A DNA stretch of 64,000 nt from Candidatus Poribacteria bacterium. Its GTDB lineage: Bacteria > Poribacteria > WGA-4E > WGA-3G. The notes beneath the pieces are model-generated. The model was not told the DNA's origin. It did no database searches and saw nothing but the letters and a program-made list of their open reading frames with translations. The stretch lies in NCBI GenBank assembly GCA_965205015.1, contig OZ242029.1:640001-704000 (forward strand). Direction: 5' to 3'. This document shows, in pieces, positions 15,070 to 41,807 of the stretch. Each line of letters begins with the position of its first letter. Within the stretch, counting starts at the first letter, position 1. Position numbers and translations under genes: made by a program.

Positions 15070-15163
15070 TTTTCTAATTTTCCTTTTTTTAATTTACCTT
15101 GCGGTTAAACAACGTGGTATTGTGCTTTAAGGTGTTTTCTCAAATCCGCTTGTTGCAGGCTAC
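15070..15163 (-). repeat. Repeat family B upstream of the M48 gene
   Basis: GTAGCCTGCAACAAGCGGATTTGAG...AACCGCAAGGTAAATTAAAAAAAGGAAAATTAGAAAA on the minus strand. Confidence 0.75.
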
Positions 15164-15288
15164 ACACTTCGGACGAATCTTGCGATGGAATCTCTGGCGA
15201 GTCATAGAATTCTAACGTATCTCGTATCAAAAATCAAGGACGTTTTAAAGGCGTGTGCCAACTGCTTTCGCATTTGTGAAAAAAACTC

Positions 15289-15318
15289 TTGACTTTTTTT
15301 AGGAAAAAGTTGTATAAT
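15289..15318 (+). promoter_or_regulatory. Sigma70-type promoter about 280 nt upstream of the OmpA-family gene
   Basis: TTGACT-18 nt-TATAAT. Confidence 0.6.
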
Positions 15319-15595
15319 TGATAGTAAAAGTGTCTGTGAGCATAAACCGCTTGCAGGTCTCCCATATTGCAAGGTCGTGATGCAGTTTCGGTCTTTGAAA
15401 AACCGTGTCTGCGCGGGCAGTGAATTGTCCTGTTTGCATACATACACTGATGACGGGATTTGAGAAGAATTCCGGGGAAAATAATAGCGTACATCATATA
15501 GAAAGTTGATTTTTTGGCGTAAGTTGAGAGCCGGCTTCTTGACATCGGCTTGCAAGCAACGCACTAAATTGTTGTAAAAAACTTAGGAGGAATCC

Positions 15596-16474
15596 ATGAT
15601 AAGTAGAACCGCTTTCACAATTATCGCTCTTCTGGGTGTTGCACTTGTTGTGAGTAGTTGCGGCAAGTTAGATCAGGAAGAGTTTGAAATGTGGAAGAAT
15701 GAACATGTCTCGCAGATGGAACAAACTGACGCAGACCTGTCAAACAAAATTACAATGCTGGATAGCAAGGTTGATCAGCAGGGTACAGACCTAAAAGAAG
15801 CTATCTCCAGAGCGAAAGATGAGGCGATTGCCGCCTCCCAACAAGGAGATGCCGATAGTATTGCTGCTGCGAAGCAAAGTGCCAAAGAGCAGGATGCACA
15901 ACTTCGCGCCGATCTGACGAAGTCTATTGACATGCAAGGACAAAAAGCGATGGACTTTGCCAAAGGTGAAGATGCCAAACTGCAAAAACAACTTGATGCC
16001 CAGGGAGAAGCCGATACAGCCCAAGACGCAGCGATAAAGCAGCTTGAATCTAAAGTCATGGCTTTGGAGGAAGGTTTAGCCATGGTGGCAGAAGAGGTTG
16101 CTGCAGCACCGACACTGCTGGTTACTGTCACTTTCGCCAGTGGTCGTACCAGTTTATCCAGCGACGGCAAGCAGATGCTTGACGGTATCGTTGAACACCT
16201 CATGGAAGCTTCGGACGCAAAGATCAAGGTTGTTGGACACGCTGATGGCATGCCAGTCCTGAAGGGAAGTTACAGAAGTAATTGGGACCTCTCACAGGCA
16301 CGCGCGAACGCTGCTGCAAAGTACTTGCAATCCAAGGGAATCGCTGCTGGCAGAATTGAGGCTGTTGGTAAAGCACACACGGATCCTGTTGCGCCACAGA
16401 ACACTGCCGCCGGTAGAGCCATGAATCGTCGGGTCGAAGTTATTCTGGTTCCTGCACATAGCCATCCACATTAA
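15596..16474 (+). CDS. OmpA/MotB-domain lipoprotein with a long coiled coil
   Basis: Lipobox VSSC; SD AGGAGG; VVGHAD, NWDLSQARA, NRRVE motifs. Confidence 0.88.
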   Translation: MISRTAFTIIALLGVALVVSSCGKLDQEEFEMWKNEHVSQMEQTDADLSNKITMLDSKVDQQGTDLKEAISRAKDEAIAASQQGDADSIAAAKQSAKEQDAQLRADLTKSIDMQGQKAMDFAKGEDAKLQKQLDAQGEADTAQDAAIKQLESKVMALEEGLAMVAEEVAAAPTLLVTVTFASGRTSLSSDGKQMLDGIVEHLMEASDAKIKVVGHADGMPVLKGSYRSNWDLSQARANAAAKYLQSKGIAAGRIEAVGKAHTDPVAPQNTAAGRAMNRRVEVILVPAHSHPH

Positions 16475-16631
16475 TTCCAAATCATTCATTGGGCGGAAAC
16501 CGTTCTAATTCCTTCGGCCCAATGAGTGCAATCCAAGTATTTTTCTATCAATATAGAGGCGGGTCGTTGTACCCGCCTACTGCTGTCGTATCACTGTTCT
16601 ATACGCGCAGTGGATAAGGACTTCACCGCTC

Positions 16632-18937: not shown

Positions 18938-20311
18938 ATGGAGAAATTAACGATGAATATTATCCACATTATTTCAGATACATTTCGACGCGATAACCTC
19001 GCTATCTATGGCGGAAAAGGATACACGCCATCCCTGAATGCCTTCGCGGAAAAATGTGTCGTTTTTGACAAAGCGTATGTCTGTGGTTTTCCGACTGTTC
19101 CGATTCGTGGCGAACTCGTGACAGGACAAGTCAGTATCTGTCGAAGGGGGTGGGAACCTCTCAAACGAGATGTCTCCGTCATCGCTGATGACTTAACGAA
19201 CGCTGGGATTGTGAGTATGATGATTGCGGATACACCGCATCATATCAACAACGGTTTCTTTTACAACCGTGGATTCACCGGATGGAAGTGGATTCGCGGG
19301 CAAGAGGGTGATCATTTAGAGACGCAGCCCTACGATTATGAATCGAAAAAATCGTTGCAGTATCGTGAGTACACACGAACACACCCGAACAAATTGCCCG
19401 GTGGACTCGGCAACCATCTGAGAAATATGGCGTTCCGGCAGACCGAGGCGGACACTTACGTTGCGCAGACTATGCAGACGGCTTGCGACTGGTTGGAACG
19501 TAACCATCAGCACGAAAATTTCTACCTGATGGTGGACACCTTCGACCCACATGAACCGTGGGATGCCCCCGAATGGTATCTAAAGCGTTTCGATGCAAGC
19601 GATTACGATGGACCGGAACCGATCTATCCCCCCTACGGTCCCAATCCGATGAATGAACGCGAGACAGAACGTCTCAACGCCCTCTACCGTGCGGAAGCCT
19701 CACTGGTTGACAATTGGATCGGGCAACTCCTGCGAAAAATCGACTATATGGGCTTGATGGAAAACACAATGGTGATCTTCATGGCGGATCACGGTTTCCT
19801 ACTGGGCGAACACGGACTCCTCGCGAAGAACCTCAGCATGTATGAAGAGGTTATCCATATCCCACTCATGGTTTATCACCCAGAGGCGACACCCCGTCAC
19901 ACCAATGCGCTCGCCAGCATTATTGATATTCCGCCTACCGTTATTGATGTGTTCGATGTGGAACACGAGGCGCAAGTGGAAGGTAACAGTCTACTGCCGG
20001 TTATCATGGGAGATACGGATACAGGACGCGAGTATACCGTTACGCACGGCGCATGGGTCGGGGGCTGGAGTCCTGATGGTGGCAGCCCGCATGGGAGCAT
20101 CACGGATGGCACATGGTCTCTGCTTTTAGAGAACCAAGGCGCGCCGAAGCAAATCTTCCATTTACCCTCTGATCCGGAACAGATGAATAATCGGTTTGAA
20201 TCGGAGACATCAGAGGCGCGGCGACTCTACCAAGCATTTTTGGACTTCTTAGGGCAGCACGGTGCCCCCGACGCAATGGTGACGGAATTCCAGAGTCGGT
20301 GGCAAGATTGA
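18938..20311 (+). CDS. Sulfatase-like hydrolase (alkaline phosphatase superfamily); start may be 18953
   Basis: ISDTFRRD, DPHEPW, ADHG, IHIPL motifs; active-site motif is T-V-P-I-R. Confidence 0.88.
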   Translation: MEKLTMNIIHIISDTFRRDNLAIYGGKGYTPSLNAFAEKCVVFDKAYVCGFPTVPIRGELVTGQVSICRRGWEPLKRDVSVIADDLTNAGIVSMMIADTPHHINNGFFYNRGFTGWKWIRGQEGDHLETQPYDYESKKSLQYREYTRTHPNKLPGGLGNHLRNMAFRQTEADTYVAQTMQTACDWLERNHQHENFYLMVDTFDPHEPWDAPEWYLKRFDASDYDGPEPIYPPYGPNPMNERETERLNALYRAEASLVDNWIGQLLRKIDYMGLMENTMVIFMADHGFLLGEHGLLAKNLSMYEEVIHIPLMVYHPEATPRHTNALASIIDIPPTVIDVFDVEHEAQVEGNSLLPVIMGDTDTGREYTVTHGAWVGGWSPDGGSPHGSITDGTWSLLLENQGAPKQIFHLPSDPEQMNNRFESETSEARRLYQAFLDFLGQHGAPDAMVTEFQSRWQD

Positions 20312-21405: not shown

Positions 21406-22287
21406 ATGAGACTCACGCAAGAACAGTGCGAAACCTTCGAAACACAAGGCGTGCTCATCGTCAAAAACGCCTTGACTGACGAAGACCTACAGCCAGTAAT
21501 TGATGAGATTTCGGACTGGATTTCAGAACGCGCCCTTGCCTTAAAACAGGAAGGTAAAATCGAAGACCTGTATGAAGACGAACCCTTCGATAAACGGTTT
21601 GGTAAGCTGCTGGCACAGTCCAGCGAGATGGTCGGTGGCTTGGACATCATGCATTATCGCGGCAAAGCCATCTTTGAATTCCTGAAGAACGACCACCTTT
21701 TAGATGTTGTTGAAGGAATTGTGGGTCCCGAAATTACGTGCAACCCGATTCAGCATCTACGTGCAAAACCGCCCGTTATCGACGGGAACGCGAGTTGGGC
21801 AGGCGGTGTGCCGTGGCATCAGGATGCCGGCGTCATGATGCCGGAAGCAGAAGGGTCCACTATCGTTACATGCTGGCTCCCATTGGGTGATAGCACAGTA
21901 GAGATGGGGTGCCTTCAGGCATTACCGGGTATTACCGAGGAAAAGGGGTATCTGGTCCATCAGAAAGAGGGTGGGACGATGATCAAACCGGAGTTAATGC
22001 CGGATGTCGAACCGCTTATGCTGGAATGCTACCGCGGCGATATTATCTTACTGAGCCGTTTCACACCACATCGTTCGGAACCGAACACGTCTGACCGATG
22101 CCGCTGGTCATTGGATTTGCGCTATCAGACGACAGGGCAGCACACTGGACGGACAGCGCATCCCGACTTCATTGTGCGGAGTCGCAAGAATCCTGAAACT
22201 GTCCTCTCTGAACACCAAGCGTGGTGTGATATGTGGATAGATGCCTTTGAAAATCCGAGAGGTTTCGCAGGACATAGGTCGGTATAG
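21406..22287 (+). CDS. Phytanoyl-CoA dioxygenase (PhyH) family protein
   Basis: WHQD, GCL, H.S..N.S...R.S.D.R. Confidence 0.9.
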   Translation: MRLTQEQCETFETQGVLIVKNALTDEDLQPVIDEISDWISERALALKQEGKIEDLYEDEPFDKRFGKLLAQSSEMVGGLDIMHYRGKAIFEFLKNDHLLDVVEGIVGPEITCNPIQHLRAKPPVIDGNASWAGGVPWHQDAGVMMPEAEGSTIVTCWLPLGDSTVEMGCLQALPGITEEKGYLVHQKEGGTMIKPELMPDVEPLMLECYRGDIILLSRFTPHRSEPNTSDRCRWSLDLRYQTTGQHTGRTAHPDFIVRSRKNPETVLSEHQAWCDMWIDAFENPRGFAGHRSV

Positions 22288-22357
22288 CCGTCAGCAGCCG
22301 GCAGTCGGTTCTCGGTTAAGAGGGGTCATCTAACAAAGGGTTCCTCTTGAGATAGCA
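22284..22357. repeat. Repeat family A (left arm and hairpin)
   Basis: ATAGCCGTCAGCAGCCGGCAGTCGGTTCTCGGTTAAGAGG...CCTCTT; contains the PhyH stop codon. Confidence 0.75.
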
Positions 22358-22366
22358 TCAAAACCC

Positions 22367-22453
22367 GTAGCCCGTAATGGAATGGAGGGCGGATTTGGGG
22401 AACGCACGTAAAAGTCGAAACGTCCGTTGTTTCTCCGCAAGGTCAATTAAAAA
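22367..22453 (+). repeat. Repeat family B
   Basis: GTAGCCCGTAATGGAATGGAGGGCGGATTTGGGGAACGCACG...CTCCGCAAGGTCAATTAAAAA; close match to 32163-32272. Confidence 0.85.
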
Positions 22454-22454
22454 G

Positions 22455-23150: not shown

Positions 23151-23239
23151 TGTACCATGATAGAATGATTAACTCCCCAATAATCACGGTAAATCTGCCC
23201 TCTTATATCGCTGACACATCAATCATAGTTCAGACTTTT
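23147..23239. repeat. Repeat family C overlapping the rsgA 3' end
   Basis: Match to 18846-18937. Confidence 0.8.
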
Positions 23240-24181: not shown

Positions 24182-24196
24182 CTCCCAAAAGAGGCT

Positions 24197-26144: not shown

Positions 26145-26234
26145 GCAGCCCGTAACGAAGTGGAGGGCGGTTCTACAGAAAGGCACTTCATTCATCAAAC
26201 CCGCCTCAACGAACCGCAAGGAATAATTAAAAAA
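26145..26234 (+). repeat. Repeat family B overlapping the 5' end of the transporter ORF
   Basis: GCAGCCCGTAACGAAGTGGAGGGCGG...CGAACCGCAAGGAATAATTAAAAAA. Confidence 0.8.
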
Positions 26235-28208
26235 TTTGAAACTTCCTCGTCGCTCACATCATCACGAATTCCCGCCCACGGTGTCACCCTCAAATCTATT
26301 CTTATTGCTGTTATTCTAATACCGATTAACTGCTACTGGGTCATTGAGATGGAAGTTATTCGGTATTCAGGTCATCCTGTGACGATTTCGCTCTTTTTCA
26401 ATGTGATTTTCAGTCTGTTCTTGGTTATCGGTGTAAACTACCTATTGCGCCGTTTCATCCCGAGCCTCGCATTGGCACAAAGCGAGTTAGTCATTGTTTA
26501 CCTGATGCTTTCCATCGCTTCGGGAATTACGGGGCACGATATGCTTGAGATTTTGGTCCCGATGTTAGGGCATGCCTCCCGTTTCGCTACTCCGGAAAAC
26601 GAATGGCAACAGTTGTTTGTCCCCTTCCTGCCAAAGTGGCTCACCGTTAGCGACACGTCCCTTTTACACGGCTATTATGAGGGTGAGCTTCCTCTCTACA
26701 CAGTTGAAACATTGCTTGGCTGGGCAACGCCGGTCCTCTGGTGGACTGCCTTCATCACTATGTTGATTTTTGGCATGCTTTGCATCAATATAATTGTGCG
26801 TAAACAATGGATCGAACACGAGAAATTAAGTTACCCGATCATCCAACTCCCACTCCAATTGACGGAAACTCCACAGAACCGCCTCTTTCAAAATAAATTG
26901 ATGTGGCTCGGGTTTGGGATTGCTGGCGCGCTTGCGCTGTGGAATGGTGTTAATTTTCTGTATCCGGTTTTACCTGAACTCCGGACACGTGTGCGAAGCT
27001 TCCAAATTTTTACGGAGAGTCCGTGGAACGCTATGGGGAGAATCCCGTTTTCACTCTATCCATTCGCAATTGGACTTGGTTTCTTTATACCTCTTGATCT
27101 CTCGTTTTCATGCTGGTTCTTCTTCTGGTATTGGCGATTCATGCGAGTTCTCGGTGCCGCGCTTGGATTACGGAGTCTACCTCGTTTTCCGTACATGAAC
27201 GAGCAAGCAGCAGGTGGTTATCTCGCGCTATGCGTTTTGGCAATTTGGGCGAGTCGCAGACATCTATTGCATGTAGCGAAAACCGTTGTGGGACTCAATA
27301 CCCAACAGGACAATACTGCGATCAGCGCCTCAGGGCGCGAAACGCAGGAATCGATGTCCTATCGCGGGGCGACGCTCGGTCTTATCGCGGTAATGATATT
27401 TCTTGTGCTGTTCTGCTACTATGGCGGTGCTGAGCTTTGGGTAATGTTCGCATTTTTTGTTATCTATTACATGATTTCGATCGCCATAACTCGGATGCGC
27501 GCAGAACTCGGCACCCCTGTGCATGACCTGCACTACTCCGGTCCTGATGAAATTCTGACTCGGACTGTTGGAACACGGCGATTAGGGAGAGACAACCTTA
27601 TTATGTTTTCGATGTTTTGGTTTATCAATCGTGCGCATCGAAGCCATCCTATGCCGCACCAGCTCGAAGGTTTCAAAATCATGGAACGGACAAACATGAC
27701 GATGAACCGTATCATTTTCGCCTTGACACTTGCGACTATTTTGGGATCATTAGCAGGATTTTGGGCATTAATCGACCGCGGGTATCGGCTCGGCATGGAA
27801 GTACGCGCGTATTGGCCCTCTCTCAGTGCTTTTGGAATAGAACCGTATCGTCGCCTGGCGGGATGGTTGCAAGCCCCAGAAGAGACACTCATCCCTGAAA
27901 GCGGATTTATGGGCATAGGGTTCCTATTAACAACGGTGCTAATGTTCTTTCGCATGCGATTCGTATGGTGGCCATTTCATCCTGCAGGGTTCGCTATCTC
28001 CACGAGTTGGGGTATGAATGTCACGTGGAGCTGCCTCTTCATGAGCTGGTTAATCAAGTGGCTTATTCTTCAGTACGGCGGCGTCGTTCGGCACCGCAAG
28101 ATCGCTCCCTTTTTCTTAGGGTTAATTTTGGGGGAATTTACGGTCGGGAGTCTCTGGACAATCTTAGGGATTATCGCCGGTATTCCGACTTACGGGTTTT
28201 GGGTATAA
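26160..28208 (+). CDS. OPT-like (DUF6785/DUF6784) multi-pass peptide transporter-like protein; start uncertain
   Basis: RKQWIEHEKLSYPIIQLP, RMRAELG.P, WWPFHPAG, FFLGLILGE; many TM helices. Confidence 0.8.
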   Translation: MEGGSTERHFIHQTRLNEPQGIIKKFETSSSLTSSRIPAHGVTLKSILIAVILIPINCYWVIEMEVIRYSGHPVTISLFFNVIFSLFLVIGVNYLLRRFIPSLALAQSELVIVYLMLSIASGITGHDMLEILVPMLGHASRFATPENEWQQLFVPFLPKWLTVSDTSLLHGYYEGELPLYTVETLLGWATPVLWWTAFITMLIFGMLCINIIVRKQWIEHEKLSYPIIQLPLQLTETPQNRLFQNKLMWLGFGIAGALALWNGVNFLYPVLPELRTRVRSFQIFTESPWNAMGRIPFSLYPFAIGLGFFIPLDLSFSCWFFFWYWRFMRVLGAALGLRSLPRFPYMNEQAAGGYLALCVLAIWASRRHLLHVAKTVVGLNTQQDNTAISASGRETQESMSYRGATLGLIAVMIFLVLFCYYGGAELWVMFAFFVIYYMISIAITRMRAELGTPVHDLHYSGPDEILTRTVGTRRLGRDNLIMFSMFWFINRAHRSHPMPHQLEGFKIMERTNMTMNRIIFALTLATILGSLAGFWALIDRGYRLGMEVRAYWPSLSAFGIEPYRRLAGWLQAPEETLIPESGFMGIGFLLTTVLMFFRMRFVWWPFHPAGFAISTSWGMNVTWSCLFMSWLIKWLILQYGGVVRHRKIAPFFLGLILGEFTVGSLWTILGIIAGIPTYGFWV

Positions 28209-32162: not shown

Positions 32163-32272
32163 TTTTAATTATACCTTGCGGAGGAACACCGGACGTTTCG
32201 AGTTTGACGTGCGTTCCTCATATCCGCCTGCGTGTTTTTGCTTGGGTATTTCTGCGTATTGTTGCAGGCTAC
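32163..32272 (-). repeat. Repeat family B abutting the thrB start codon
   Basis: GTAGCCTGCAAC...GCAGGCGGATATGAGGAACGCACGTCAAACTCGAAACGTCCGG...CCGCAAGGTATAATTAAAA-ATG. Confidence 0.85.
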
Positions 32273-33526: not shown

Positions 33527-33542
33527 AATTATACCTCCGCGT

Positions 33543-33660
33543 ATTGGCTATCGGCTGCCGGCTATCGGAACCATCGGAGACCACCGGTAAAGAGGTTTTC
33601 GTTTAACAATACCCTCTTACCGACTGCTGATGGCTGATAGCCATTCTTGCTGACGGCTAT
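33543..33660. repeat. Repeat family A
   Basis: GGCTATCGGCTGCCGGCTATCGG...AAGAGG...CCTCTTACCGACTGCTGATGGCTGATAGCC...GACGGCTAT. Confidence 0.8.
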
Positions 33661-34700
33661 TCTGCTTGCATGATCGCTCCGGTGGAACTCGCTACCCACA
33701 CGTTTTTTCCGTCAAGCACAAAAACTTTGACTAATTTTTCCTTGGAACCTTCAAGTTCCCAGGTTGCGCCACCATCACTGGTACGTAGGATGGCACCAAC
33801 GCCAAAGTCACCCCCAACAGCCCAACCGTTCTTCTCATCTGCGAACCCAACACTTCGTAGTGTCTCCTCTGTGCCACTGTCTTGGGGTTTCCATGATTCG
33901 CCGCCATCAGTGGTATGAAGAATTACACCATTTTCACCAACAGCCCAGCCCATTGACGCATCAAGGAAAAAGATATCTTCAAGGATATCCTCTCTGTTGG
34001 TCGCCTGCGTGACCCACGTCTGTGCGCCGTCCGTTGTTTTCTGAATCAAGGCATGTTGACCTTGCGTACTCGGACTCACGCGGACTCCGGCAACCCATCC
34101 CGTCTGTTCGTCAAGAAATTGAATGGCGTTGTACATATTTGCGTCATCATCGCCAACCGCACCGAGTTGTCCACCTTGAAGAACCTTCCATGAACGCCCA
34201 GCATTTTTGGTAGAAAGGATGGTGTCACTTTCTCCTACTGCGTACCCGACCTCTTTATTGACAAAATAGATACCTTTAAGTCCGTTGCCAACCTTGCTGG
34301 TTTGCATTTCCCAGTCTCTACCGTTATCCGTACCGACTATCGTACCGTTTGCGCCGACAGCCCAACCGTGTTTATCATCGAGGAAGTACACTTCTGCTAA
34401 ATCGGCAGGGATTTTGATTTCCGATTTTTGCCACGATTTACCACCATCCATGGTATATCCGATGAAACCTGGATTCTCAAAGTCTTCAAAGGATGCGGCA
34501 CCGACTACCCAACCAGTACTCTTGCCCGTAAAAGCGATTGACATATAATCTCGAACTTCTGGATCGCGTTCCTGTAAAACGTTCCAATTTCCTAACGCCG
34601 GTAGAACGGTCCCCAAAATACTGAGGGTCGCGAGTAGCATTATTCCCGTCAGTAGGCGTGACTCAAGCCTGTTCATTGTTATCGTATCTCCTTTTTTCAT
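33657..34700 (-). CDS. YCF48/BNR-repeat beta-propeller exported protein
   Basis: Signal peptide; repeated F.D...GWAVG..G.IL.T.DGG..W. Confidence 0.9.
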   Translation of the reverse strand: MKKGDTITMNRLESRLLTGIMLLATLSILGTVLPALGNWNVLQERDPEVRDYMSIAFTGKSTGWVVGAASFEDFENPGFIGYTMDGGKSWQKSEIKIPADLAEVYFLDDKHGWAVGANGTIVGTDNGRDWEMQTSKVGNGLKGIYFVNKEVGYAVGESDTILSTKNAGRSWKVLQGGQLGAVGDDDANMYNAIQFLDEQTGWVAGVRVSPSTQGQHALIQKTTDGAQTWVTQATNREDILEDIFFLDASMGWAVGENGVILHTTDGGESWKPQDSGTEETLRSVGFADEKNGWAVGGDFGVGAILRTSDGGATWELEGSKEKLVKVFVLDGKNVWVASSTGAIMQAE

Positions 34701-34770
34701 TGGTTTTCAGTTTTCAGTTAAGAGACTTTTGTTTAGCAAAACTTTCTTGTAACTGTTAACTGATAACTAT
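34699..34770. repeat. Repeat family A
   Basis: GGTTTTCAGTTTTCAGTTAAGAG...AACTGTTAACTGATAACTAT. Confidence 0.7.
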
Positions 34771-34913
34771 TTAACCCCGAATTAAAAATTAAGTCAATAA
34801 ATTTCTCCCAAGCACCCAAGCGACAGGAACGTTGAAAGCAATACGGATTCTACCCAGCAAAAATTAAAACGCCATATCTTTGCGAGGATGCGTTTTAATG
34901 CTATGTAGATCCC

Positions 34914-36302
34914 CTACTTTGCCACAATTAAAGTCCCAGTCTTAAAACTCTCTCCCACTTGAAGTTGGTAGACGTAAATGCCGCTTTCCACGATTTCACC
35001 GGATTCGTCGTGTCCATCCCAAATCAACTCCGTTTCACCCGGTAATGCCGTCAAAGTCTTAACGAGCATTCCGTCAATGTCAAAGATCAACACCGTGAAT
35101 TCACCCGATGTTTCTTCAAGGGCGCGCGCGGGAAAGACAACCCGATTGAAATCCTCGTCTGGAGAAAGCGGTGTAAAAGGATTCGGATAGGGTTTGTCAA
35201 AAATACGAAGCCTTTTTTCTGCAGGGATGGATTCGTTATTTGCCTCGTCAATGGCGATGACAGCATACGTAAAGCTGCCTATAGGTAGTGAGCGGTCATC
35301 AATAAATTTATATTCTGTTTTTAACTCATTGATTTCTGCAAGCGTAGTAAGTCCCTCCGCAATTCGGTAGGCGATTACATCACGACTGACGCTCGGTTTC
35401 CACAAAATTTCGACACCATCGCTTGATGGAGTGATGCTAAGCATTGTCGGTGGCTCTGGGGCAGCAGTATCCGGTGATACATTTACCGTTTGTATCGATG
35501 AGCGTTCCGACTGCAAGTAAAGCGTTTTGTAAGCGGTAATCTGATAGGTATGGTTTCCTGGAGGAACGTTTATATCGCGAAACGTCGTCGACGAACGGTT
35601 TTCGACCTGAATCGTAGAATCGTCCTTGTCTCTGTAGATGAGATAACCGTTGACATCTGAATCCGTTGATTTCTGCCAACGGAGGGTTACATCGTTTTCT
35701 CCAGTTTCATCGGCTTCAGCAGTGAAACCAGTCACCGGGTCAGGCGGCACATTCGGAATAACCTGTAAAGTAAAATCGTCGTTGTTGAGTTTTCCGTCTG
35801 CCTGCCCTGGTCGGATGAATTCACCGATGGGACCGTCTTGAAGATTGCGAAGACGGGCTCTGAAAACCGCCTCTGGAATCAGTGTATTCGGTGTCTGACA
35901 CTCAAAGGTAATTTCATAGAGCGAGTTCTGAAAATCAACGATAGCATCCGCGAGTTCAACGCGCAGAACACTTCCACCTGAGACGACAGCCCTTGCGACG
36001 ATTTGGTTGCCATCCCGTGAAATACCCCTGAAAAAAGAGGATTGGGTCAGAAATCCCCGTGGCATCGTGATTTCAATCGTTTTAATTTCTTCACCCGGCT
36101 CCGCCAGGGACCGGTCAATTACAAGCGTCACGAGCAATGGCACGGTTGAACTCGCAGGAACGACGCCTTCTTTTTGTCCTACGACGTTAATCTCTCCAAC
36201 AGAGGTAACCGCTCCATAACCCTTAGCGGAAACCAAGAGCAGACTCCCGATAAATATTAAAACAATGGATGTGTTTTTCATTTTTGACCAGTGATTTTCC
36301 AT
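34914..36302 (-). CDS. Exported fibronectin-III protein with a C-terminal FlgD-Ig/T9SS-CTD-like domain
   Basis: Signal peptide; two FN3-like repeats; YPNPFTP...WDGHDESG..V.SGIYVY...GTLIVAK. Confidence 0.8.
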   Translation of the reverse strand: MENHWSKMKNTSIVLIFIGSLLLVSAKGYGAVTSVGEINVVGQKEGVVPASSTVPLLVTLVIDRSLAEPGEEIKTIEITMPRGFLTQSSFFRGISRDGNQIVARAVVSGGSVLRVELADAIVDFQNSLYEITFECQTPNTLIPEAVFRARLRNLQDGPIGEFIRPGQADGKLNNDDFTLQVIPNVPPDPVTGFTAEADETGENDVTLRWQKSTDSDVNGYLIYRDKDDSTIQVENRSSTTFRDINVPPGNHTYQITAYKTLYLQSERSSIQTVNVSPDTAAPEPPTMLSITPSSDGVEILWKPSVSRDVIAYRIAEGLTTLAEINELKTEYKFIDDRSLPIGSFTYAVIAIDEANNESIPAEKRLRIFDKPYPNPFTPLSPDEDFNRVVFPARALEETSGEFTVLIFDIDGMLVKTLTALPGETELIWDGHDESGEIVESGIYVYQLQVGESFKTGTLIVAK

Positions 36303-36393
36303 GATGAAATTTTTGCCTTCTTATATCGGATAGCAGGGCAATCCTGCAATCAGGTAAATCACAGTTCAGACCTCTGCCGACTGCCGATAATGC

Positions 36394-37341
36394 TTAAAGC
36401 AAAAGATTAAGAGAGAACCGTTGTGTTGTATTGTCTCGGAAATCCCCACTTAGCAGTTGAAACCCATAATCGATCTGGAGGGCAGTACCACTGATTGGAA
36501 GTTTAGCACTTCCACCGAAACTCAGAGTCGTTGCCGAACTGCTCCCACTTTTCACACCATAACCGCCGCGAACAGCAATGGATTTATTCAACCAGACTTC
36601 CATTCCTGTGCGTATATAAATTTCGCCATTGCGAGAAGCAACTTCAAAACTCCCGAGACTGCCTCTCAACAAGTTGCTGACTGCCGCACCTTGCGCGCTT
36701 ATCTCCGCGATAGACGCGAGTCTGTACGCCAAACCAGCCCGAATGTTTAACGGCACAGGATCTGTTTGGGTGTCAGATATACTCATATTTGCGGGGAGCA
36801 GATTCTCTACCGATGCGCCAAGACTCAAACTCTGGACAGGTTTGGCAATGACGCCGAGATCAAAAGAAACGGCTGAACTGGAGGTTTTGACGAAATATGG
36901 ATTCTCTGCGACGAATTCGTTTGTCGCGTCAAAAGAGGTCCGGAAGAGTTTCAGATTTGCTCCAATTGCGAATTGCTCGAAAAGCGCATTTCCGTAGGAG
37001 AGACGCACCGTCTGTTCATGATAAACTTCAGAGTCTTCCGCCAAGTCCCCGACACCCGCCCCAATCGCCCCCATTCTTCCGAGCGGAATAACGCCACTGA
37101 GGGCATTATAGGTAATGAGCCCCCTAAAGCGTTGTGCGTGCGTAGCACCGAGATGGATCCCATCCATATAACCTAATCCTGCGGCATTGTAATCTGCGGC
37201 GTTGTTATCATCGGCGAGCGCGACGAACGCTCCACCCAAACCTAACGGCCGCGCGCCAACCCCAATATTATTGAATGTAGCAGCGGCGACAGCAGGTAAA
37301 AGCAACACGATGAGTAGAATCAGACAGAATATATGTTTCAA
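36394..37341 (-). CDS. PorV/UPF0164-like outer-membrane beta-barrel protein
   Basis: GVGARPLGLGGAFVALADD..A..YNAAGL plug motif followed by amphipathic strands. Confidence 0.82.
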   Translation of the reverse strand: MKHIFCLILLIVLLLPAVAAATFNNIGVGARPLGLGGAFVALADDNNAADYNAAGLGYMDGIHLGATHAQRFRGLITYNALSGVIPLGRMGAIGAGVGDLAEDSEVYHEQTVRLSYGNALFEQFAIGANLKLFRTSFDATNEFVAENPYFVKTSSSAVSFDLGVIAKPVQSLSLGASVENLLPANMSISDTQTDPVPLNIRAGLAYRLASIAEISAQGAAVSNLLRGSLGSFEVASRNGEIYIRTGMEVWLNKSIAVRGGYGVKSGSSSATTLSFGGSAKLPISGTALQIDYGFQLLSGDFRDNTTQRFSLNLLL

Positions 37342-37430
37342 TTTTCTAATTTTCCTTGCGGATAAGTTATAGCGTTTGTGAATTTAACGGCTTTCGTGTT
37401 CGAGTCGCACTCCATTTCATTAGGTGCTGC
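37342..37430 (-). repeat. Repeat family B abutting the TTG start of the PorV-like gene
   Basis: GCAGCACCTAATGAAATGGAGTGCG...CCGCAAGGAAAATTAGAAAA-TTG. Confidence 0.75.
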
Positions 37431-37486
37431 TGAATGCTGATCGCTGATAACCGATGCCTCCGAAAACCGATATCTTGATAACAGAT

Positions 37487-38149
37487 TTAATTCAATCTAC
37501 CCGTCATCGGTACAAAACGGACAGGGATAATCTCAGTGGTTTCGAGAGATTGTACGGAATTCTCATCGGTTTGAAGTCCTTTTCGAATTAAAAGGAGATT
37601 TTGTTCAGAACCACCGACGGGGATCACCATCCTACCGCCTGGTTTGAGCTGCTGAATGAGCCATTCTGGCACGTTCGGAGGCGCTGCCGCGACAAGCACA
37701 GCATCATAAGGGGCGTGTTCTTGCCAACCATAATACCCATCCCCTTTTTTCAGATAAATGTTCCGATAGTTGAGTGCCTCTAACCGCGCTTTCGCACTTT
37801 CGAGAAGTCCGGATATAATTTCAACAGAATAAACATCTCTCGCCAATTCTGCCAGTACCGCTGTTTGATAGCCACACCCCGTTCCGATCTCAAGTACTTT
37901 TGAAGTTGAGGTGAGCTCGAGCAAATCCGTCATCAACGCGACGATATAGGGTTGCGAGATCGTTTGGTCACAATCAATCGGTAACGCCCCATCCTGATAT
38001 GCGACATTCAGATACTGCGGTTTTACAAACAGGTGCCGCTCCACCTTCCGCATAACAGCAAGCACTTGCGGATTGTGGATACCACGCGCTTCAATCTGAT
38101 TCCGAACCATTTTGCGACGGAGTGCCGCGTAGTTCTTGGCGAAAAGCAT
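37487..38149 (-). CDS. pcm: Protein-L-isoaspartate O-methyltransferase
   Basis: QTISQPY, VLEIGTGCGYQ, APYD, QLKPGG, VRFVPM. Confidence 0.95.
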   Translation of the reverse strand: MLFAKNYAALRRKMVRNQIEARGIHNPQVLAVMRKVERHLFVKPQYLNVAYQDGALPIDCDQTISQPYIVALMTDLLELTSTSKVLEIGTGCGYQTAVLAELARDVYSVEIISGLLESAKARLEALNYRNIYLKKGDGYYGWQEHAPYDAVLVAAAPPNVPEWLIQQLKPGGRMVIPVGGSEQNLLLIRKGLQTDENSVQSLETTEIIPVRFVPMTGRLN

Positions 38150-38156
38150 CTTTTTA

Positions 38157-38274
38157 GTAGCGGTCAGTCGTCAGTACGGATTTTTTCAAAAATCCTTTCA
38201 GTTTTCGTAAGGGTTGGGTTACCCAACCCTTACAGAGATGTTCGTTTAACTGATAACTGATAACTGACAACTAT
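38157..38274. repeat. Composite family A element enclosing a perfect GTAA palindrome (38207-38233)
   Basis: GTAAGGGTTGGGT-T-ACCCAACCCTTAC between heptamer arms; contains the sppA stop codon. Confidence 0.8.
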
Positions 38275-40763
38275 TCCACACTTATATGATAAGGCATGAG
38301 AAGAAATAATCGATGTTTCCTGATTGTATTTAGGAGCCTCGCGGTAGTACTCAAGCCCCCGTACTGTGTAATAAATTGCAGCCGAGACTTAGTTTCCACA
38401 TCTCTATCCTCTATGCTCAGGTTTCCTATAGACGAAACCTGTGGGGCAATGTTCCTAAAGGAATTGGGGGTTACAAACCCTTTCCACGAGACTAATGGAA
38501 GTCCGAGATTGTTGAGGAGTTGCGCCATCCATGTCTTTTTCGGAAATTCGACGATCTCAACTGATTCTCCTGCCAATCCTGCGTGCGCTCGCGCGGTTGC
38601 GATTGCGAGGCTTAAACCGCCCAATTCGTCCACAAGTCCGTTTTCCTTCGCCTGTCTGCCTGACCAGATGCGTCCTCGCCCAAGTCTATCTACATCCTCG
38701 ACTGTGAGTTCGGCTCGCCCGAGCGCAACTTTTTCAATGAAATCGTCATAAATTTCTTTAATCTGTTTCTGTACGATTGCTTTTTCAGCAAGCGAATAGT
38801 CTCCGTAATCGGTGTAAAAATCAGCGTGCTCGCCCCGTTTGAGGATCTCTTTATGGATACCGAGTTTCTCATAAAGCCCCTTGAAGCTATACTTACCCCC
38901 AACAACGCCGATAGACCCCGTAATCGTTCCGGGTTCAGCAACGATCACATCCGCGGGAGCCGCGATATAATAGCCACCGGATGCCGCCACATCTCCCATT
39001 GAGACCACGAACGGTTTAACCTCTTTAAGTTTTACCAACTCACGCCATATAGCGTCAGCAGCAACAACGAGCCCACCACCGCTGTCAATTCGCAACACAA
39101 CTGCTTTTATGGAATCGTCGTCTTTTACCCGTTTGATAATACCCGTGATTGTGTCCGCTCCCATCACCTGAGTGCCCATTAGCGGATCAACGAAACTATC
39201 GCCTGTCAACATCAATCCTTCAGCCTTAATGATGGCGACCTTCGGTTTTGGCACCTGCCACTCTTGTAAGGAGAGTCCATTTCTTAGGTATCCACTCAGT
39301 GGTACCAAATCGGTTTTGGCATCAGTGAGTTCAGTCACAACATCATGCAATTCATCTTCATAGACGAGTCTGTCCACCAGTTCAACGGCAAAGGCTTGAC
39401 GTGCTGTGTAAGGTCCGGCATCGATACGTTCTTTGACGTCTTCGTGCGTCCACCCACGTCCGTCTGCGATTGCCGCGACGAGCTGCGCATAGAGGTCATC
39501 CAAAATGATGTTTTGGATTTTTCGGTGTGCTTCGGACATCTCGCGCCGGGTGAACGCCTCGGATGCGGATTTGTATTCACCGAGATGCTCAAGATCCGCC
39601 CGAATACCGAGCATGTCTAAGGCACCTTTGTAGAAGGAGTGCTCTGTGCGTATCCCAATTAATCGGACCTCAGCAGACGGATGGATCAGGATACCGTCAC
39701 ACGCAGACGCGACAATATAGTCGCCAGTAGAACAATTAGAGAGATAGCAGAGAACAACACGTCCCGATTCCCTAAAATCCAAGATAGCATCTGCCATCTC
39801 TTGAAGCTGAGCGATACCGTACCCGCTCCCATCAATGCGGACAAGAACCCCAGCGACATCGTCATCCCATTTTGCGATAGGTAGGACCCGTTTGACGGCG
39901 CGCATCGGTAGGTCAAGGAATGTCCTACGGCGTGGCAGCGGTTTGGTTTTCGGCGCGTTGGAAAAATGAAAATAGCCGACCCCCGACCATGCTTCTCGAT
40001 TATTGTCAAAGGCATTGCCCGTTCCAAATCCCCAATTTCCGATATTTACACCGAAACGGACATCAAAACTCAAGTCGTTATTTACGGCACCACGGAGCAT
40101 GAATTCGCGAATAGGGCGGACCTCCAGCGCATAACGGAGTTCTACACCCTCAATTCCTTGCGTTTTCCGCATGTCAATTGAGAGGGTTGCGCGCCACGTC
40201 CCCGGCCGGAGTGCCATCCCTAAATCATAAGTACGTCCGAGTTTTTCTGCAAGCAATTTAGGACGATTGAGATCGCGTGCCGTTGCCCCAATTGAGAAAT
40301 AACGCCGCCGATACATTAAACCCATGGAGAGTGAACGGAACCTGTCGTATCCCTTATCGTCCGAATTCATCCAACTATAACTTGTTCCCCAATAGAGGGC
40401 ACTTCCGAGGTGGTACCCACCCGAAAACGTATAGCGCGTGAAGTCGGTATCGGCATCGGCGGTACCGAATTCTATACCGAAACCTGCGCCAGGGATAGCA
40501 AGGAAGAAAGCATCATCGCCTGCCCAATCGCTTTGATATGTTCGGAGGTAGTATAAATTCAGCCCGCGTCCCGCAGCAAGTCCGGATGGATTAAAGAAGG
40601 TGGCGAGGGCATCATCGCTCATAGCAATGGAACTTGCAGGCAAATGGGTCCGCGCCTTTGGCGGCGCGGCAACACAAAATGTGCTTATCCCACAAATGAA
40701 CACGACGGAGATAACATTCCTACCAATGCGCCCTAAATGCTCACTCAATAAAGATGAAACCAT
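38271..40763 (-). CDS. sppA: Signal peptide peptidase SppA (two S49 domains) with an N-terminal beta-barrel-like domain
   Basis: GEYKSA Lys, LRIDSGGG, VAASGGY Ser, TGSIGV, GRIWSG; N-terminal DD....FNPSGL plus beta-strands. Confidence 0.9.
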   Translation of the reverse strand: MVSSLLSEHLGRIGRNVISVVFICGISTFCVAAPPKARTHLPASSIAMSDDALATFFNPSGLAAGRGLNLYYLRTYQSDWAGDDAFFLAIPGAGFGIEFGTADADTDFTRYTFSGGYHLGSALYWGTSYSWMNSDDKGYDRFRSLSMGLMYRRRYFSIGATARDLNRPKLLAEKLGRTYDLGMALRPGTWRATLSIDMRKTQGIEGVELRYALEVRPIREFMLRGAVNNDLSFDVRFGVNIGNWGFGTGNAFDNNREAWSGVGYFHFSNAPKTKPLPRRRTFLDLPMRAVKRVLPIAKWDDDVAGVLVRIDGSGYGIAQLQEMADAILDFRESGRVVLCYLSNCSTGDYIVASACDGILIHPSAEVRLIGIRTEHSFYKGALDMLGIRADLEHLGEYKSASEAFTRREMSEAHRKIQNIILDDLYAQLVAAIADGRGWTHEDVKERIDAGPYTARQAFAVELVDRLVYEDELHDVVTELTDAKTDLVPLSGYLRNGLSLQEWQVPKPKVAIIKAEGLMLTGDSFVDPLMGTQVMGADTITGIIKRVKDDDSIKAVVLRIDSGGGLVVAADAIWRELVKLKEVKPFVVSMGDVAASGGYYIAAPADVIVAEPGTITGSIGVVGGKYSFKGLYEKLGIHKEILKRGEHADFYTDYGDYSLAEKAIVQKQIKEIYDDFIEKVALGRAELTVEDVDRLGRGRIWSGRQAKENGLVDELGGLSLAIATARAHAGLAGESVEIVEFPKKTWMAQLLNNLGLPLVSWKGFVTPNSFRNIAPQVSSIGNLSIEDRDVETKSRLQFITQYGGLSTTARLLNTIRKHRLFLLMPYHISVE

Positions 40764-40788
40764 AAATCTGTTTTTTTATTTCATTCCA

Positions 40789-40900
40789 TATCAGGACGGA
40801 TTGTTTCAAAAAAATCCTTTCAGTCTGCCTCACAGTGAGGGTTTTCAAAAAGAGCGAGAGGCCTATGGTATCCTTCTTTTAACTGACGGCTGATGGCTAC
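40789..40900. repeat. Repeat family A variant
   Basis: Shares ACGGATT.TTTCAAAAA..TCCTTTCAGT with the 38157-38274 copy; ends AACTGACGGCTGATGGCTAC. Confidence 0.65.
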
Positions 40901-40955
40901 TCCACTACTATAGAATACCACAAAAGCGTCGGGATTGCAATTGAAACACCAAAAC

Positions 40956-41771
40956 CTATAAGCGTCGGGCGTACTGCGGAAACAATTCGTCATGAATGTC
41001 GCTGCATTGCTGAAGATGGATCTGCCGCCCAGCGTCTGCAGTGTCAACCATTGTTGGGAAAAACATCCCCGCGCCCGTTTCAATTTTATATCCGCCTGCT
41101 GAATGGACGCTCAAGTACTGATGAAGCGTTTCTAAATCCGGTTCGGTCGTGCAATGTTGCGTACAATTCATGGTGAACATCCGCCGCCGGGTACCGCCGC
41201 CAAACGCTGCATGATAGGTGTCGTGGTTGAAAATCACGACATCGCCGGGTGTACTTTCCAACGCGACGCTGGTTGGAAAATCACGCGGCTGGATACCGTA
41301 CAATGCCTCTGATTGATTTGGGTCAATCTTTTCAGCTCTGACAAAGTGTGCGGGGTTTTGGCTACCCGGAATGATACGTAAGCACCCGGTATCTTTCGTC
41401 AAGGGATCAAGGTAAAACGCCACCTTACAAGCGAAGAGACGTCCCCAACTTCCATCCGGATGCCAACCGGTGTCGCCAGCGTAATAGTTTCCGTCGCCCC
41501 CAGCGTAGTTGAAGTCTTCACCGATCACACCCCCAATGAGTCCTTTAACCCGTTCATCATCGAGTAAAGTACAGAGTCGAGGGCGATGCTCAATGGGACC
41601 ACCGAACATTGTGCGACGTGTTCCATCATGATCTTTGCCACCCCCAAATTCTTGAATCGATATTTCAAATTCTTCGATAATCCATTCCATCTCGCTTGGC
41701 GAAAACATACCGGGTATTGCGAGATAACCGAAAGTATTGAAAAAATTCACTTGATGTTCTGTCAACTTCAT
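40956..41771 (-). CDS. PhyH family dioxygenase
   Basis: WHPD, GCLRIIPGS, PGDVVIF...H. Confidence 0.9.
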   Translation of the reverse strand: MKLTEHQVNFFNTFGYLAIPGMFSPSEMEWIIEEFEISIQEFGGGKDHDGTRRTMFGGPIEHRPRLCTLLDDERVKGLIGGVIGEDFNYAGGDGNYYAGDTGWHPDGSWGRLFACKVAFYLDPLTKDTGCLRIIPGSQNPAHFVRAEKIDPNQSEALYGIQPRDFPTSVALESTPGDVVIFNHDTYHAAFGGGTRRRMFTMNCTQHCTTEPDLETLHQYLSVHSAGGYKIETGAGMFFPTMVDTADAGRQIHLQQCSDIHDELFPQYARRL

Positions 41772-41807
41772 TTTTTAATTTTCCTCGCGGTTCGGTCAGG
41801 TGCGTTG
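41772..41807 (-). repeat. Repeat family B 3' fragment abutting an ATG
   Basis: CAACGCACCTGACCGAACCGCGAGGAAAATTAAAAA-ATG. Confidence 0.7.

Follow-up and report, generated by a model that had tools for sequence, protein, structure and literature searches.

Family B is a modular intergenic repeat of about 90 bases, specific to a clade of the sponge-symbiont Poribacteria and present there in hundreds of copies. It probably acts as a portable translation-initiation leader whose 3' end is the ribosome-binding region of the gene that it abuts. From 5' to 3', the element is composed of a GTAG-led hairpin, a stretch of some 45 bases with little structure, and an end of almost constant sequence made of CCGCAAGG, two or three bases, and AATTAAAAA. 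On the mRNA, AAGG, the weak Shine-Dalgarno (SD) core of this end, would pair with CCUU of the 16S 3' end (...CACCUCCUUUCU), and in the A/U-rich, structure-free spacer of 11-13 nt that follows it, the A-rich stretch would prevent the start region from folding; in this way, the element would supply a uniform, insulated initiation site. A translation-initiation role for the 3' end had been proposed in the initial annotation of this DNA, and it was supported by the analyses reported here.

The DNA analyzed was a 64-kb stretch, called the window throughout. A scan for the end motif CCGCRAGG-N3-ATTARAAA with up to two mismatches returned seven matches in the window against 0.16 expected, and none of 100 shuffles reached seven. 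An nhmmer profile made from 66 aligned copies, two of which came from the window and match by construction, gave the same seven copies at E<=1 and no others. Both searches recovered exactly the copies that the initial annotation had placed (Table 1). All of them were on the strand of the gene that they precede or occupy, five of the six intergenic ones lay between co-oriented genes, and four of the seven ended 0-1 nt from a start codon. Five cases of an A-tract 0-5 nt before a start had originally been counted; this was correct for c22, c32, c37, and c41, and c15 reached 4 nt only after its duplicated second tail. The placement of c26 beside a start did not stand, because the TTG at 26236 opens a different frame from that of the 26160-28208 ORF and meets a stop after 27 codons, leaving this copy without a canonical start next to it. 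Its tail has overwritten the native ATG GAA GTT seen in element-free relatives, no in-frame canonical start follows the tail, and the reading frame of the host gene passes through the element; an upstream GTG was ruled out as the start of this gene because one relative has an in-frame stop. The partial copy c06 was positioned between two Pfam NAD-kinase domains.

Table 1. Copies of family B in the window, with the extents from the profile search and the end-motif scan.
Copy	Form	Extent (strand)	Profile match	End-motif match	Details	Gene preceded or occupied	A-run to start
c06	3' partial ('solo box')	6179..6224 (+)	6179-6224	6203-6221 (+)	in frame, residues ~134-148	nadK	
c15	full	15065..15163 (-)	15163-15083	15086-15104 (-)	hairpin shortened; second tail duplicated	peptidase M48, ATG 15064 (-)	4 nt past second A-run
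c22	full	22366..22454 (+)	22366-22456	22435-22453 (+)	GTAG 22367-22370; hairpin arms GCCC 22370-22373 and GGGC 22387-22390; box CCGCAAGG 22435-22442; A-rich tail to 22453	NTP_transferase, ATG 22455 (+)	1 nt
c26	full	26145..26236 (+)	26145-26236	26214-26232 (+)	in 5' region of gene	DUF6785/DUF6784 membrane protein	
c32	full	32163..32272 (-)	32272-32161	32163-32181 (-)	extra ~28-nt module within hairpin loop	GHMP-kinase, ATG 32162, abuts tail (-)	0 nt
c37	full	37342..37429 (-)	37429-37339	37343-37361 (-)	hairpin GCAC/GTGC; tail variant ATTAGAAAA	exported (signal-peptide) protein, TTG 37341, one base from copy (-)	1 nt
c41	3' partial	41772..41814 (-)	41814-41770	41772-41790 (-)	box variant CCGCGAGG; fills 42-nt spacer of two co-oriented genes	PhyH-family, ATG 41771, abuts copy (-)	0 nt

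The association with start codons extended to other genomes. A scan of the genomes of 185,579 species gave 146 boxes with exact ends, and at 77 of these an ATG, GTG, or TTG opening a frame of at least 50 codons was found at -3 to +5 nt, with such a start at 6-59 nt for a further 24. Abutment was exact, with the start at 0 or 1 nt, in 71 boxes. In the antisense control, only one of the 146 boxes had a start at 0 to 2 nt. The 77 adjoining starts were ATG in 70 cases, TTG in four, and GTG in three. In syntenic regions of relatives (n = 20; 63 profile matches), 39 matches stood at a start in the sense direction, 32 at a distance of 5 nt or less. Many copies occupied tiny spacers within gene strings, and no antisense copy was observed between co-oriented genes, either among the five of the window or among the 63 matches in relatives. 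The description of the repeat as always sense applied to the seven window copies and failed for the family, as some copies adjoined the stop codon of a convergent gene, away from any start (nine of the 146 exact boxes and 12 of the 63 syntenic matches). These copies at convergent stops fitted a leader function poorly, as did c26, with its native ATG overwritten, and c15, in which AAGG stands 17 nt and 36 nt from the ATG. In a sample of 120 genomes, 37 had at least 10 boxes and 72 had none, and 13 carried 190-285 exact ends each.

Orthologous sites showed that family B is dispersed and was at one time inserted, because empty and filled versions of the same sites were found and because in-frame insertions were present in nadK; on both grounds, the earlier proposal of a mobile element was borne out. 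At the GHMP-kinase gene (junction J32), the same ATG is preceded at 10 nt by a native AGGA-type site in distant relatives and by the element in the window clade, with full, 5'-cut, or tail-only forms in close relatives. At the exported-protein gene (J37), empty sites with a native AAAGGAAAT-type site were detected in L187 and L189-L191, of about 86% nucleotide identity, and empty orthologous sites were also found in the more distant L198-L206. The search for empty sites, suggested at the outset, returned element-free orthologues with native ribosome-binding sites at J32 and J37. The same ATG or TTG was observed at empty orthologous sites, indicating that the start codon belongs to the gene. 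Collectively, these comparisons showed that the element came by insertion or replacement to sites formerly equipped with their own ribosome-binding site. At the c41 junction, a similar short copy was present in L187, L190, and L199, the last being about 78% identical.

The tail without a preceding C was found 0-5 times per element-free genome, equal to the reversed-pattern control, and 20-48 times per element-rich genome; it is a part of the element and was not supplied by the target. Since it is at background level in element-free genomes, the idea that the element targets a native consensus site was ruled out. In three relatives with whole copies in frame at the position of c06, the nadK ORF was 367, 328, and 337 aa long, compared with 299 aa in an element-free relative and 305 aa in the window with its solo box, and these insertions indicate that the element can land outside ribosome sites.

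Truncated copies were informative about the mode of spread. At J22, J32, and J37, some relatives retained just (A)AGG and the tail, and the cut in eight different junction sequences lay 0-1 nt from AAGG/GAGG, showing that copies which decay by deletion retain AAGG plus tail. The claim that partial copies keep the 3' end was in agreement with these remnants and with both partial copies of the window. The initial annotation had read 5' truncation with an A-rich tail as a possible sign of RNA-mediated insertion, that is, of a retroposon-like element copied via RNA. The sense orientation of all seven window copies, the 3' end kept in partial copies, and the nadK insertions, sense and in frame, go in that direction. 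However, the A-rich end is a fixed motif and not a variable poly-A, the nadK insertion site showed no target-site duplication, and the truncated forms share orthologous sites with full forms, nested in full-copy clades, so that they represent later deletions. Moreover, RVT_1 was detected in two of five element-rich genomes and was absent (E<=0.001) from two complete chromosomes with about 280 boxes each. Retroposition is, in our judgment, extremely improbable. The GTAGCC... and ...AATTAAAAA ends were non-complementary on direct reading, and with neither terminal inverted repeats nor a duplication at the nadK site, the features of a MITE were not seen either. Tandem copies were arranged head-to-tail and module mosaics were also present; turnover would proceed by deletion between repeats, tandem duplication, and module swapping.

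REP sequences are reportedly recognized by a GTAG at the 5' end with a short imperfect palindrome behind it, and both are present in family B. Spread of the REP/RAYT type had been suggested on the basis of the GTAG, and it would make the repeat a REP/BIME-like selfish element that a RAYT (Y1/HUH) transposase mobilizes by recognizing the GTAG hairpin, its position at starts being the result of tolerated insertions. As in the REP/BIME of enterobacteria, pseudomonads, and Stenotrophomonas, a GTAG-type tetranucleotide stands beside a short GC-rich hairpin, and there are hundreds of extragenic copies, mosaic module clusters, and tandem arrays; Y1_Tnp genes were found in all five element-rich genomes, and the landings in nadK are outside ribosome sites. 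Nevertheless, among 33 PF01797 places in these five genomes, 26 were examined with flanks of 1-1.5 kb and none was flanked by the hairpin or the box, the sole nearby copy being an ordinary one 1.3 kb off at L137. Y1 matches occurred in 109 of the 120 sampled genomes and did not track element load, with 285 boxes and one Y1 match in one extreme (G099) and no boxes and 32 Y1 matches in the other (G030). Unlike REP/BIME, family B does not form inverted pairs, keeps a strict orientation between co-oriented genes, and has about 70 extra bases ending in a putative ribosome site, and its exact abutment on starts is hard to obtain by tolerance alone. The genomes examined gave no support for a link of the element to RAYT or to reverse transcriptase, and we regard movement by RAYT as quite unlikely.

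The alignment of copies gave the consensus CGTAG followed by a stem of 4-6 bp, with the A and G of TAG at >=90%. Each of the 66 aligned copies preserved all four pairs of the 4-bp stem, and compensatory changes were observed at every pair (GC63/AU2/GU1; CG61/UA5; CG55/UA9/AU2; UA33/CG32/UG1), and the loop sequence was conserved alongside. These data upheld the 5' G(T/C)AG and hairpin of the initial annotation, and we infer that the hairpin at the GTAG end is under selection for pairing, with a recognition site for the copying machinery, a protein-binding site, and an mRNA processing or stability site as candidate roles. RNAalifold retained only this hairpin and the invariant CC/GG. A long-range helix between the bases after the hairpin and those before or at CCGC was unsupported, the pairs within the same copy giving -6.33 kcal/mol and cross pairs -6.00, with the observed value reached in 363 of 5000 shuffles. 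The CC-GCAA-GG end had also been drawn as a GNRA hairpin, and this was not sustained by 1,395 consensus boxes from five element-rich genomes, where single transitions that keep and that break the GNRA were equally common (CCGTAAGG 27 vs CCACAAGG 28; CCGCGAGG 6 vs CCGCAGGG 6).

In the same 1,395 boxes, transitions within AAGG (6, 6, and 12) were 2-4 times rarer than within CCGC (22, 28, and 27). Because CCGC, outside the SD core, was almost as invariant as AAGG, SD pairing alone is an insufficient explanation for the end. Orthologous copies were 96% identical over their whole 92 nt, compared with 88-90% for the adjacent CDS and 78-81% for third positions, showing that whole copies are held more constant than neighboring coding DNA; this degree of identity may in part be due to gene conversion among copies and not to selection. 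Constraint of this kind could also come from a chiefly cis-acting RNA control or processing module, whose hairpin (and perhaps CCGCAAGG) serves as the binding site of a shared protein or RNase, so that hundreds of genes are co-regulated or operon mRNAs are cut and stabilized between genes, the ribosome site being only part of the package. The covarying stem with its conserved loop, the conservation of the entire copy and not the tail alone, the nearly invariant CCGC, and the co-oriented neighbors of five of the six intergenic window copies are in line with such a module. In addition, the Neisseria REP2 repeats, the closest known class, are tied to co-regulated genes in the passages of Delihas 2011 (PMC3184786) that deal with them. 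Yet the hairpin and everything 5' of AAGG were deleted in several lineages at three junctions with the genes persisting, only a 4-bp hairpin is supported and the long-range helix failed, and no Rfam family matched, so we hold this account to be unlikely.

A leader function was examined against the native start sites. The 16S 3' end was ...CACCTCCTTTCT in three of three genomes checked. Native spacing peaked at +9 for AAGG and +7 for GGAG, and the AAGG of the box was at +11 to +13, a range occupied by seven of 26 native AAGG; the box therefore offers a weak SD of 4-5 bp, placed 2-4 nt farther upstream than the native mode. The importance of SD pairing in this lineage may be small, since 53 of 113 other starts were without any SD 4-mer. 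Box-bearing starts (n = 13) had a predicted unpaired probability of 0.72 from -15 to +5, compared with 0.46 for the other starts (n = 117; Mann-Whitney p=4e-7, calculated with orthologues that are not independent).

A consensus scan limited to the sigma-70 type found no -35/-10 site over any of five window copies. Upstream of c26, a promoter-like site at 26000-26028, about 115 nt away, was conserved in element-free relatives, which places the element in the 5' UTR. The available RNA runs are assembled contigs of related strains with 90-99% likeness, strandless, without transcript ends, and possibly including DNA. Metatranscriptome contigs crossed the tail-only c32 junction from gene to gene, joining 32177 to 32337 in X2-X4, and many RNA contigs broke at element ends.

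These observations bear on the idea that the box is a promoter -10 element for leaderless mRNAs, with a NANAAT hexamer after AAGG and the A of the start codon 6-7 nt on. The tails read TATAAT, TAAAAT, or AATAAT, then TAAAAA and ATG, 70 of the 77 adjacent starts are ATG, and the deletion remnants retain the hexamer besides AAGG, as this idea would have it. Against it, a -35 partner was lacking and a site with nine of 12 matches overlapped none of the five window copies, many copies sit in tiny spacers inside gene strings, and c26 has the conserved native promoter-like site upstream. TTG is a poor codon for leaderless initiation, and seven of the 77 starts are TTG or GTG, including the conserved TTG of c37. 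Moreover, a native gene (junction Jd) uses TATAAT as its SD-to-start spacer, 1 nt from a TTG, suggesting that such A/T hexamers are ordinary spacers here. The RNA contigs that span the tail-only junction are weak evidence in the same direction, because contigs do not prove single transcripts. A leaderless promoter is thus very unlikely, and translation initiation remains the reading that we prefer.

Comparison with known systems gave partial resemblances. Rickettsia palindromic elements (RPE) are reportedly inserted in frame in conserved protein genes and translated as an extra peptide, similar to the read-through copies of nadK in three relatives and the solo box of the window; unlike family B, RPE are palindromic over their full length and not tied to start codons, and in-frame copies are the exception in family B. 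Mycobacterial interspersed repetitive units (MIRU) are said to be direct repeats in operon spacers, oriented with the genes and interacting with the flanking stop and start codons. Family B also consists of direct repeats in gene spacers, oriented with the genes and in contact with their stop and start codons, but it is a single unit ending in an SD-like motif and an A-run, unlike MIRU with their small overlapping ORFs, translational coupling, and variable tandem arrays. Searches of Rfam 15 gave no match at gathering score in the 64-kb window or in 140 kb of relatives, and no relevant one at E<=10 when restricted to 14900-42000 or to c22; weak matches to lysM-Prevotella (E 6.7) and sR28 (E 0.24) were outside the copies and at chance level. 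A motif named 'Poribacteria-1' has reportedly been described by Weinberg and colleagues. That word is absent from the main text of Weinberg et al. 2017, and no description of the element was found in the Poribacteria repeat and RNA-motif literature, in which this work is represented by its main text.

By description and not by sequence, family B most resembles the class formed by the Neisseria REP2 (contact-regulated element) and the Borrelia plasmid IR-A/IR-B sequences, as these are portrayed in the relevant passages of Delihas 2011 (PMC3184786). In that account, they are likewise dispersed, roughly 100 nt long, without terminal inverted repeats, and immediately upstream of ORFs, with stem-loop(s) near the 5' end, a ribosome-binding site, for which the AAGG of family B is the putative counterpart, and an open frame able to fuse with genes. 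The same passages give them two hairpins, a promoter, and an ATG of their own; in contrast, one covarying hairpin is supported in family B, no promoter-like site was found over its copies, and the start codon, ATG, TTG, or GTG, is the gene's own. Family B is also far more abundant, given the 23-26 copies per genome reported there for REP2 and the 190-285 exact ends in 13 of 120 genomes.

A bolder possibility, which we consider rather doubtful, is that several hundred genes per genome in one clade have had their initiation regions overwritten by a single self-propagating cassette, the GTAG hairpin being the handle for either the machinery that copies it or a global RNA-binding regulator, and that a selfish repeat has in this way become a standardized, genome-wide 'gene-start' system that tolerates translation inside proteins. 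If the leader function is true, the same imported sequence would start translation of about one gene in 10 in the window (six of about 50) and at no fewer than 280 sites per genome in relatives. Gene expression from such 'standard parts' would then occur naturally and on a large scale in a phylum of uncultured symbionts. Family B offers a defined leader for testing in heterologous expression, accounts for features that mislead annotation, such as unusual gene starts (c26) and in-frame inserts (nadK), and provides fast-changing markers for strain typing in Poribacteria. It also sharpens an older question, asked before about Neisseria REP2, of how repeats with expression signals can multiply when no transposase is evident.

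The seven copies of the element reported by the initial annotation were all recovered. The end motif occurred 7 times in the window against 0.16 expected, and a profile search found the same copies and no others at E ≤ 1, the profile having been built from 66 aligned copies, two of them window copies that match by construction. Five of the seven (named here by kb position) were full-length, at about 90 nt each except for c32, which an insert in the hairpin loop lengthens to 110 nt; c41 and c06, the latter inside nadK, were 3' partial copies. As had been proposed, all seven have the same orientation as the gene that follows or contains them. The downstream genes are mutually unrelated and encode six different products: peptidase M48, nucleotidyl transferase, DUF6785 membrane protein, GHMP kinase, exported protein and PhyH dioxygenase. 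The claim that the A-rich tail ends at a start codon was correct for four window copies, at 0-1 nt, and for c15 through a duplicated tail only; it failed for c26, where the TTG suggested as a start is out of frame.

Alignment of the 66 simple full copies over 101 columns revealed four common parts. The first is a 5' hairpin, composed of (C)GTAG and a 4-bp stem kept in 66/66 copies with compensatory changes at each pair, in agreement with the hairpin originally described; its loop has two conserved versions, and in one of these the stem is 6 bp long. This is followed by an A-rich, moderately conserved middle of about 45 nt, a box, CCGCAAGG, and a tail of 2-3 variable bases and then AATTAAAAA. 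When the bases after the hairpin were paired with those preceding the box, own pairs scored -6.33 kcal/mol, a mean that 363 of 5000 shuffles also attained, and mismatched partners scored -6.00 kcal/mol; helices other than the 5' hairpin are thus not supported. The element is a mosaic, in which hairpin and middle types combine freely, the loop carries extra modules, tails are duplicated and whole units stand in tandem. The loop of c32 holds a module of the GCAGAAATACCCAAGCAAAAAC type, which is found reversed (GGGTTTTTGCTTGGGTATTTCTGC type) in other copies at many loci, and its occurrence in both orientations indicates a separate small element landing in the hairpin.

The box had been read as a GNRA hairpin, CC-GCAA-GG. 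In five element-rich genomes, with 1,395 consensus boxes in total, single-transition variants that keep GNRA were as frequent as those that break it (CCGTAAGG, 27, versus CCACAAGG, 28; CCGCGAGG, 6, versus CCGCAGGG, 6), and the box is therefore probably not a functional GNRA hairpin. A further variant of the CCGC half, CTGCAAGG, was counted 22 times, and one of the AAGG half, CCGCAAAG, 12 times. The AAGG half was 2-4 times less variable, with A-to-G comparisons confounded by mutation bias, and CCGC was remarkably constant despite varying more than AAGG.

Exact ends were searched for in one genome per species across 185,579 species, and at least 130 stretches were found. Among 80 of the matches listed, 70 were titled Poribacteria, two belonged to an 'uncultured bacterium' MAG, one of these copies being near-identical to a copy in a Poribacteria record, and eight were isolated matches from Nostoc (5), Vibrio, Chitinophagaceae and Geothermocultor; in the four of these with inspected flanks, the hairpin module was absent. 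In a sample of 120 Poribacteria genomes, 48 had at least one exact end, 37 at least 10, 13 between 190 and 285, and 72 none, so the family belongs to one part of the phylum. The reversed pattern gave one match in total over the same genomes.

Next, we analyzed placement relative to genes in the 146 exact ends among the matches listed. The start codon of a frame of at least 50 codons lay at -3 to +5 nt in 77 of the 146 and at 6-59 nt in 24; a second box, from a tandem copy or a duplicated tail, stood no more than 130 nt away in 15, the stop of an opposite-strand frame adjoined 9, and none of these contexts applied to 21, at least seven of which were chance matches in other phyla. A mirror-image control, run on the opposite strand, had a start at 0 to 2 nt in 1/146 listed ends. 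A second set, of 63 profile matches in 20 syntenic regions of relatives, contained 39 in sense at a start, 32 of them no more than 5 nt from it, nine inside a sense frame (eight being c26 orthologues), 12 adjoining the stop of a convergent gene, at three loci, and three that were upstream tandem members or a c26 orthologue with a stop. At these convergent loci, the tail abuts or overlaps the opposite-strand stop, and its reverse complement contains TAA. No antisense copy between co-oriented genes was detected among the 63 matches or the window copies. Thus, 'always sense' holds in the informative context of co-oriented genes, but 'always at starts' does not, given the convergent-stop copies.

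The 16S rRNA of three genomes ends in ...CACCTCCTTTCT, whose CCUU can base-pair with AAGG(A). Of 113 other unambiguous starts, 60 carried a Shine-Dalgarno (SD) 4-mer, with modes AAGG+9, AGGA+7/8 and GGAG+7; the other 53 had none, and many end simply in an A-run. The box AAGG lies at +11 to +13, 2-4 nt past the native mode; 7 of 26 native AAGG stand at 11-13, so this spacing is inside the native range. The final 10 bases before the start were 95% A+T in box-bearing starts versus 64% in the others, and the predicted unpaired probability over -15 to +5 was 0.72 versus 0.46. We infer that the working part of the element would be a weak SD combined with an open, A-rich stretch. The tail could instead be the -10 hexamer of a promoter for leaderless starts, which it resembles and for which its distance to the start is right; this is very unlikely, since TTG and GTG starts occur, copies sit in very short spacers within operons, and one native gene has TATAAT as a spacer at 1 nt from its TTG. 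No sigma-70-like site was found over the element across the five window copies scanned. About 115 nt upstream of c26, a promoter-like site is conserved also in element-free relatives, placing c26 in a 5' UTR. RNA-library contigs of related strains span the tail-only c32 junction from gene to gene, although such contigs may combine several transcripts or derive from DNA. Separately, an invariant GGAGGTATAATT, a strong SD followed by a TATAAT-like spacer, was observed directly before a conserved TTG start in the window and 20/20 relatives.

To follow single sites, the region syntenic to window 22000-41990 was taken from 20 genomes (70-92% identity), and 13 gene junctions were cut out. At the GHMP-kinase junction (c32), nine more distant genomes conserve a native AGGA, 10 nt and ATG; the element is full in the window and four relatives, cut at its 5' side in two genomes, and reduced to AAGG and the tail in three. 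At the exported-protein junction (c37), a native AAAGGAAAT-type site was present in four relatives (~86% nucleotide identity) and all distant ones (L198-L206), the element in the window and three others, and only (A)AGG plus tail in four. At the P-type ATPase junction, the relation is the other way round, with the element in nine relatives (seven full, two 5'-cut) and a different repeat module, which ends in an A-run, in the window. At a further junction, the native GGAGG site of one genome is intact, with a copy inserted 20 nt upstream of it. Short copies similar to c41 occupy the same junction in L187, L190 and L199 (identity about 78% for L199), and c41 is therefore old. Per genome, the tail without a preceding C was found 0-5 times where the element is absent, 0-4 times in the reversed control and 20-48 times in element-rich genomes. 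This indicated that the tail is carried by the element, and landing of the element on a native consensus site was rejected, as the tail frequency equals background in element-free genomes.

The tail-only forms occur in a subclade nested among full-copy genomes and are most simply later deletions, which weakens 5' truncation as a sign of RNA-mediated insertion. Across eight distinct junction sequences, the deletions stop 0-1 nt from AAGG/GAGG, the outcome expected of selection for an SD and spacer. At two junctions (n=7 and n=5), identity between orthologous copies was 96%, compared with 88-90% over the neighbouring 600 nt of coding sequence and 78-81% at third positions. Copies at a third junction were only 85% identical because inserted modules differ. 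Such conservation points to either selection on the whole unit or homogenisation of copies by conversion, and despite it the 5' two-thirds can be lost.

Two copies lie within genes. The nadK frame has 299 aa in an element-free relative lacking the insert; in the window (305 aa), the solo box c06 is read as TEPQGKFKK between two Pfam domains. Three relatives (L212, L213 and L214; 367, 328 and 337 aa) carry at least one whole copy in frame at the same spot, translated ...RNEMEGG...TEPQGK... and adding 23-62 residues, and removal of the segment between two direct box repeats turns the longest form into that of the window. The empty site itself has CCGCAA and CAAGG, a single case that hints at microhomology with the box. 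At c26, the reading frame stays open across the element. In 10 genomes (window and L187-L195), the DUF6785 gene has had its native ATG GAA GTT overwritten by the element, and no canonical in-frame start follows in c26 or its orthologues. Because the box of L189 contains an in-frame TAA, translation there has to begin within ATA ATT AAA or in some unconventional way; a non-canonical ATA/ATT of the tail may thus serve as the actual start.

Other repeats were also noticed. Upstream of the c37 gene, L187, L189-L191 and L193-L195 carry 1-4 tandem units of a ~31-nt repeat with a GGGGTTTGTAACCCC hairpin. After stop codons, we observed arrays of 6-7-nt units (CAGTTAT, CAGTCGG and CGATAAC types), often with an AAGAGG...CCTCTT hairpin behind them and in some cases with a ...CCATAAAAAA end abutting ATG without an SD motif; these are probably the 'family A' of the initial annotation.

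Coordinates of the element copies and neighbouring features
Feature	Sequence	Position	Detail
Solo box c06	window	6179-6224	inside nadK
Second-repeat array	window	22288-22350	
Promoter-like site	window	26000-26028	TTGACT-17-TAAATT, TG before it
Region of c26	window	26145-26240	DUF6785 gene
Second-repeat array	window	31148-31244	
Loop module of c32	window	32226-32255	~25-30 nt
Second-repeat array	window	32290-32353	
Gene with conserved TTG start	window	32354-33526	
Invariant GGAGGTATAATT	window	33527-33540	
Second-repeat array	window	33527-33656	
Second-repeat array	window	38150-38270	
Second-repeat array	window	40764-40955	
Convergent-spacer copy	L194 (relative)	1254-1345	and orthologues
Convergent-spacer copy	L187 (relative)	19079-19254	and orthologues
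Convergent-spacer copy	L191 (relative)	5932-6041	and orthologues

REP/RAYT-type spread had been suggested from the 5' GTAG. Y1 transposase genes were present in 109/120 genomes, with no tracking of element load, and element copies flanked 0/26 of the Y1 loci examined, which argues against this mode. Insertion through RNA fared no better, as a reverse transcriptase was found in only 2/5 element-rich genomes. No terminal inverted repeats or target duplications of the element were seen; the visible turnover consists of deletions, tandem duplication, module swaps and wholesale spacer replacement.

Among the families and papers searched, no Rfam family or paper describing the element was found; a Poribacteria motif may be listed in the supplement of Weinberg 2017. 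The nearest described class is that of the Neisseria REP2 and Borrelia IR sequences, which Delihas (2011) describes as repeats without terminal inverted repeats that lie just upstream of genes, with a ribosome site, 5' stem-loops and an unknown mode of spread. Compared with these, the Poribacteria element has a roughly ten-fold higher copy number and a REP-like GTAG hairpin, but no detected promoter and no ATG of its own; in its in-frame copies, it is like the Rickettsia RPEs.
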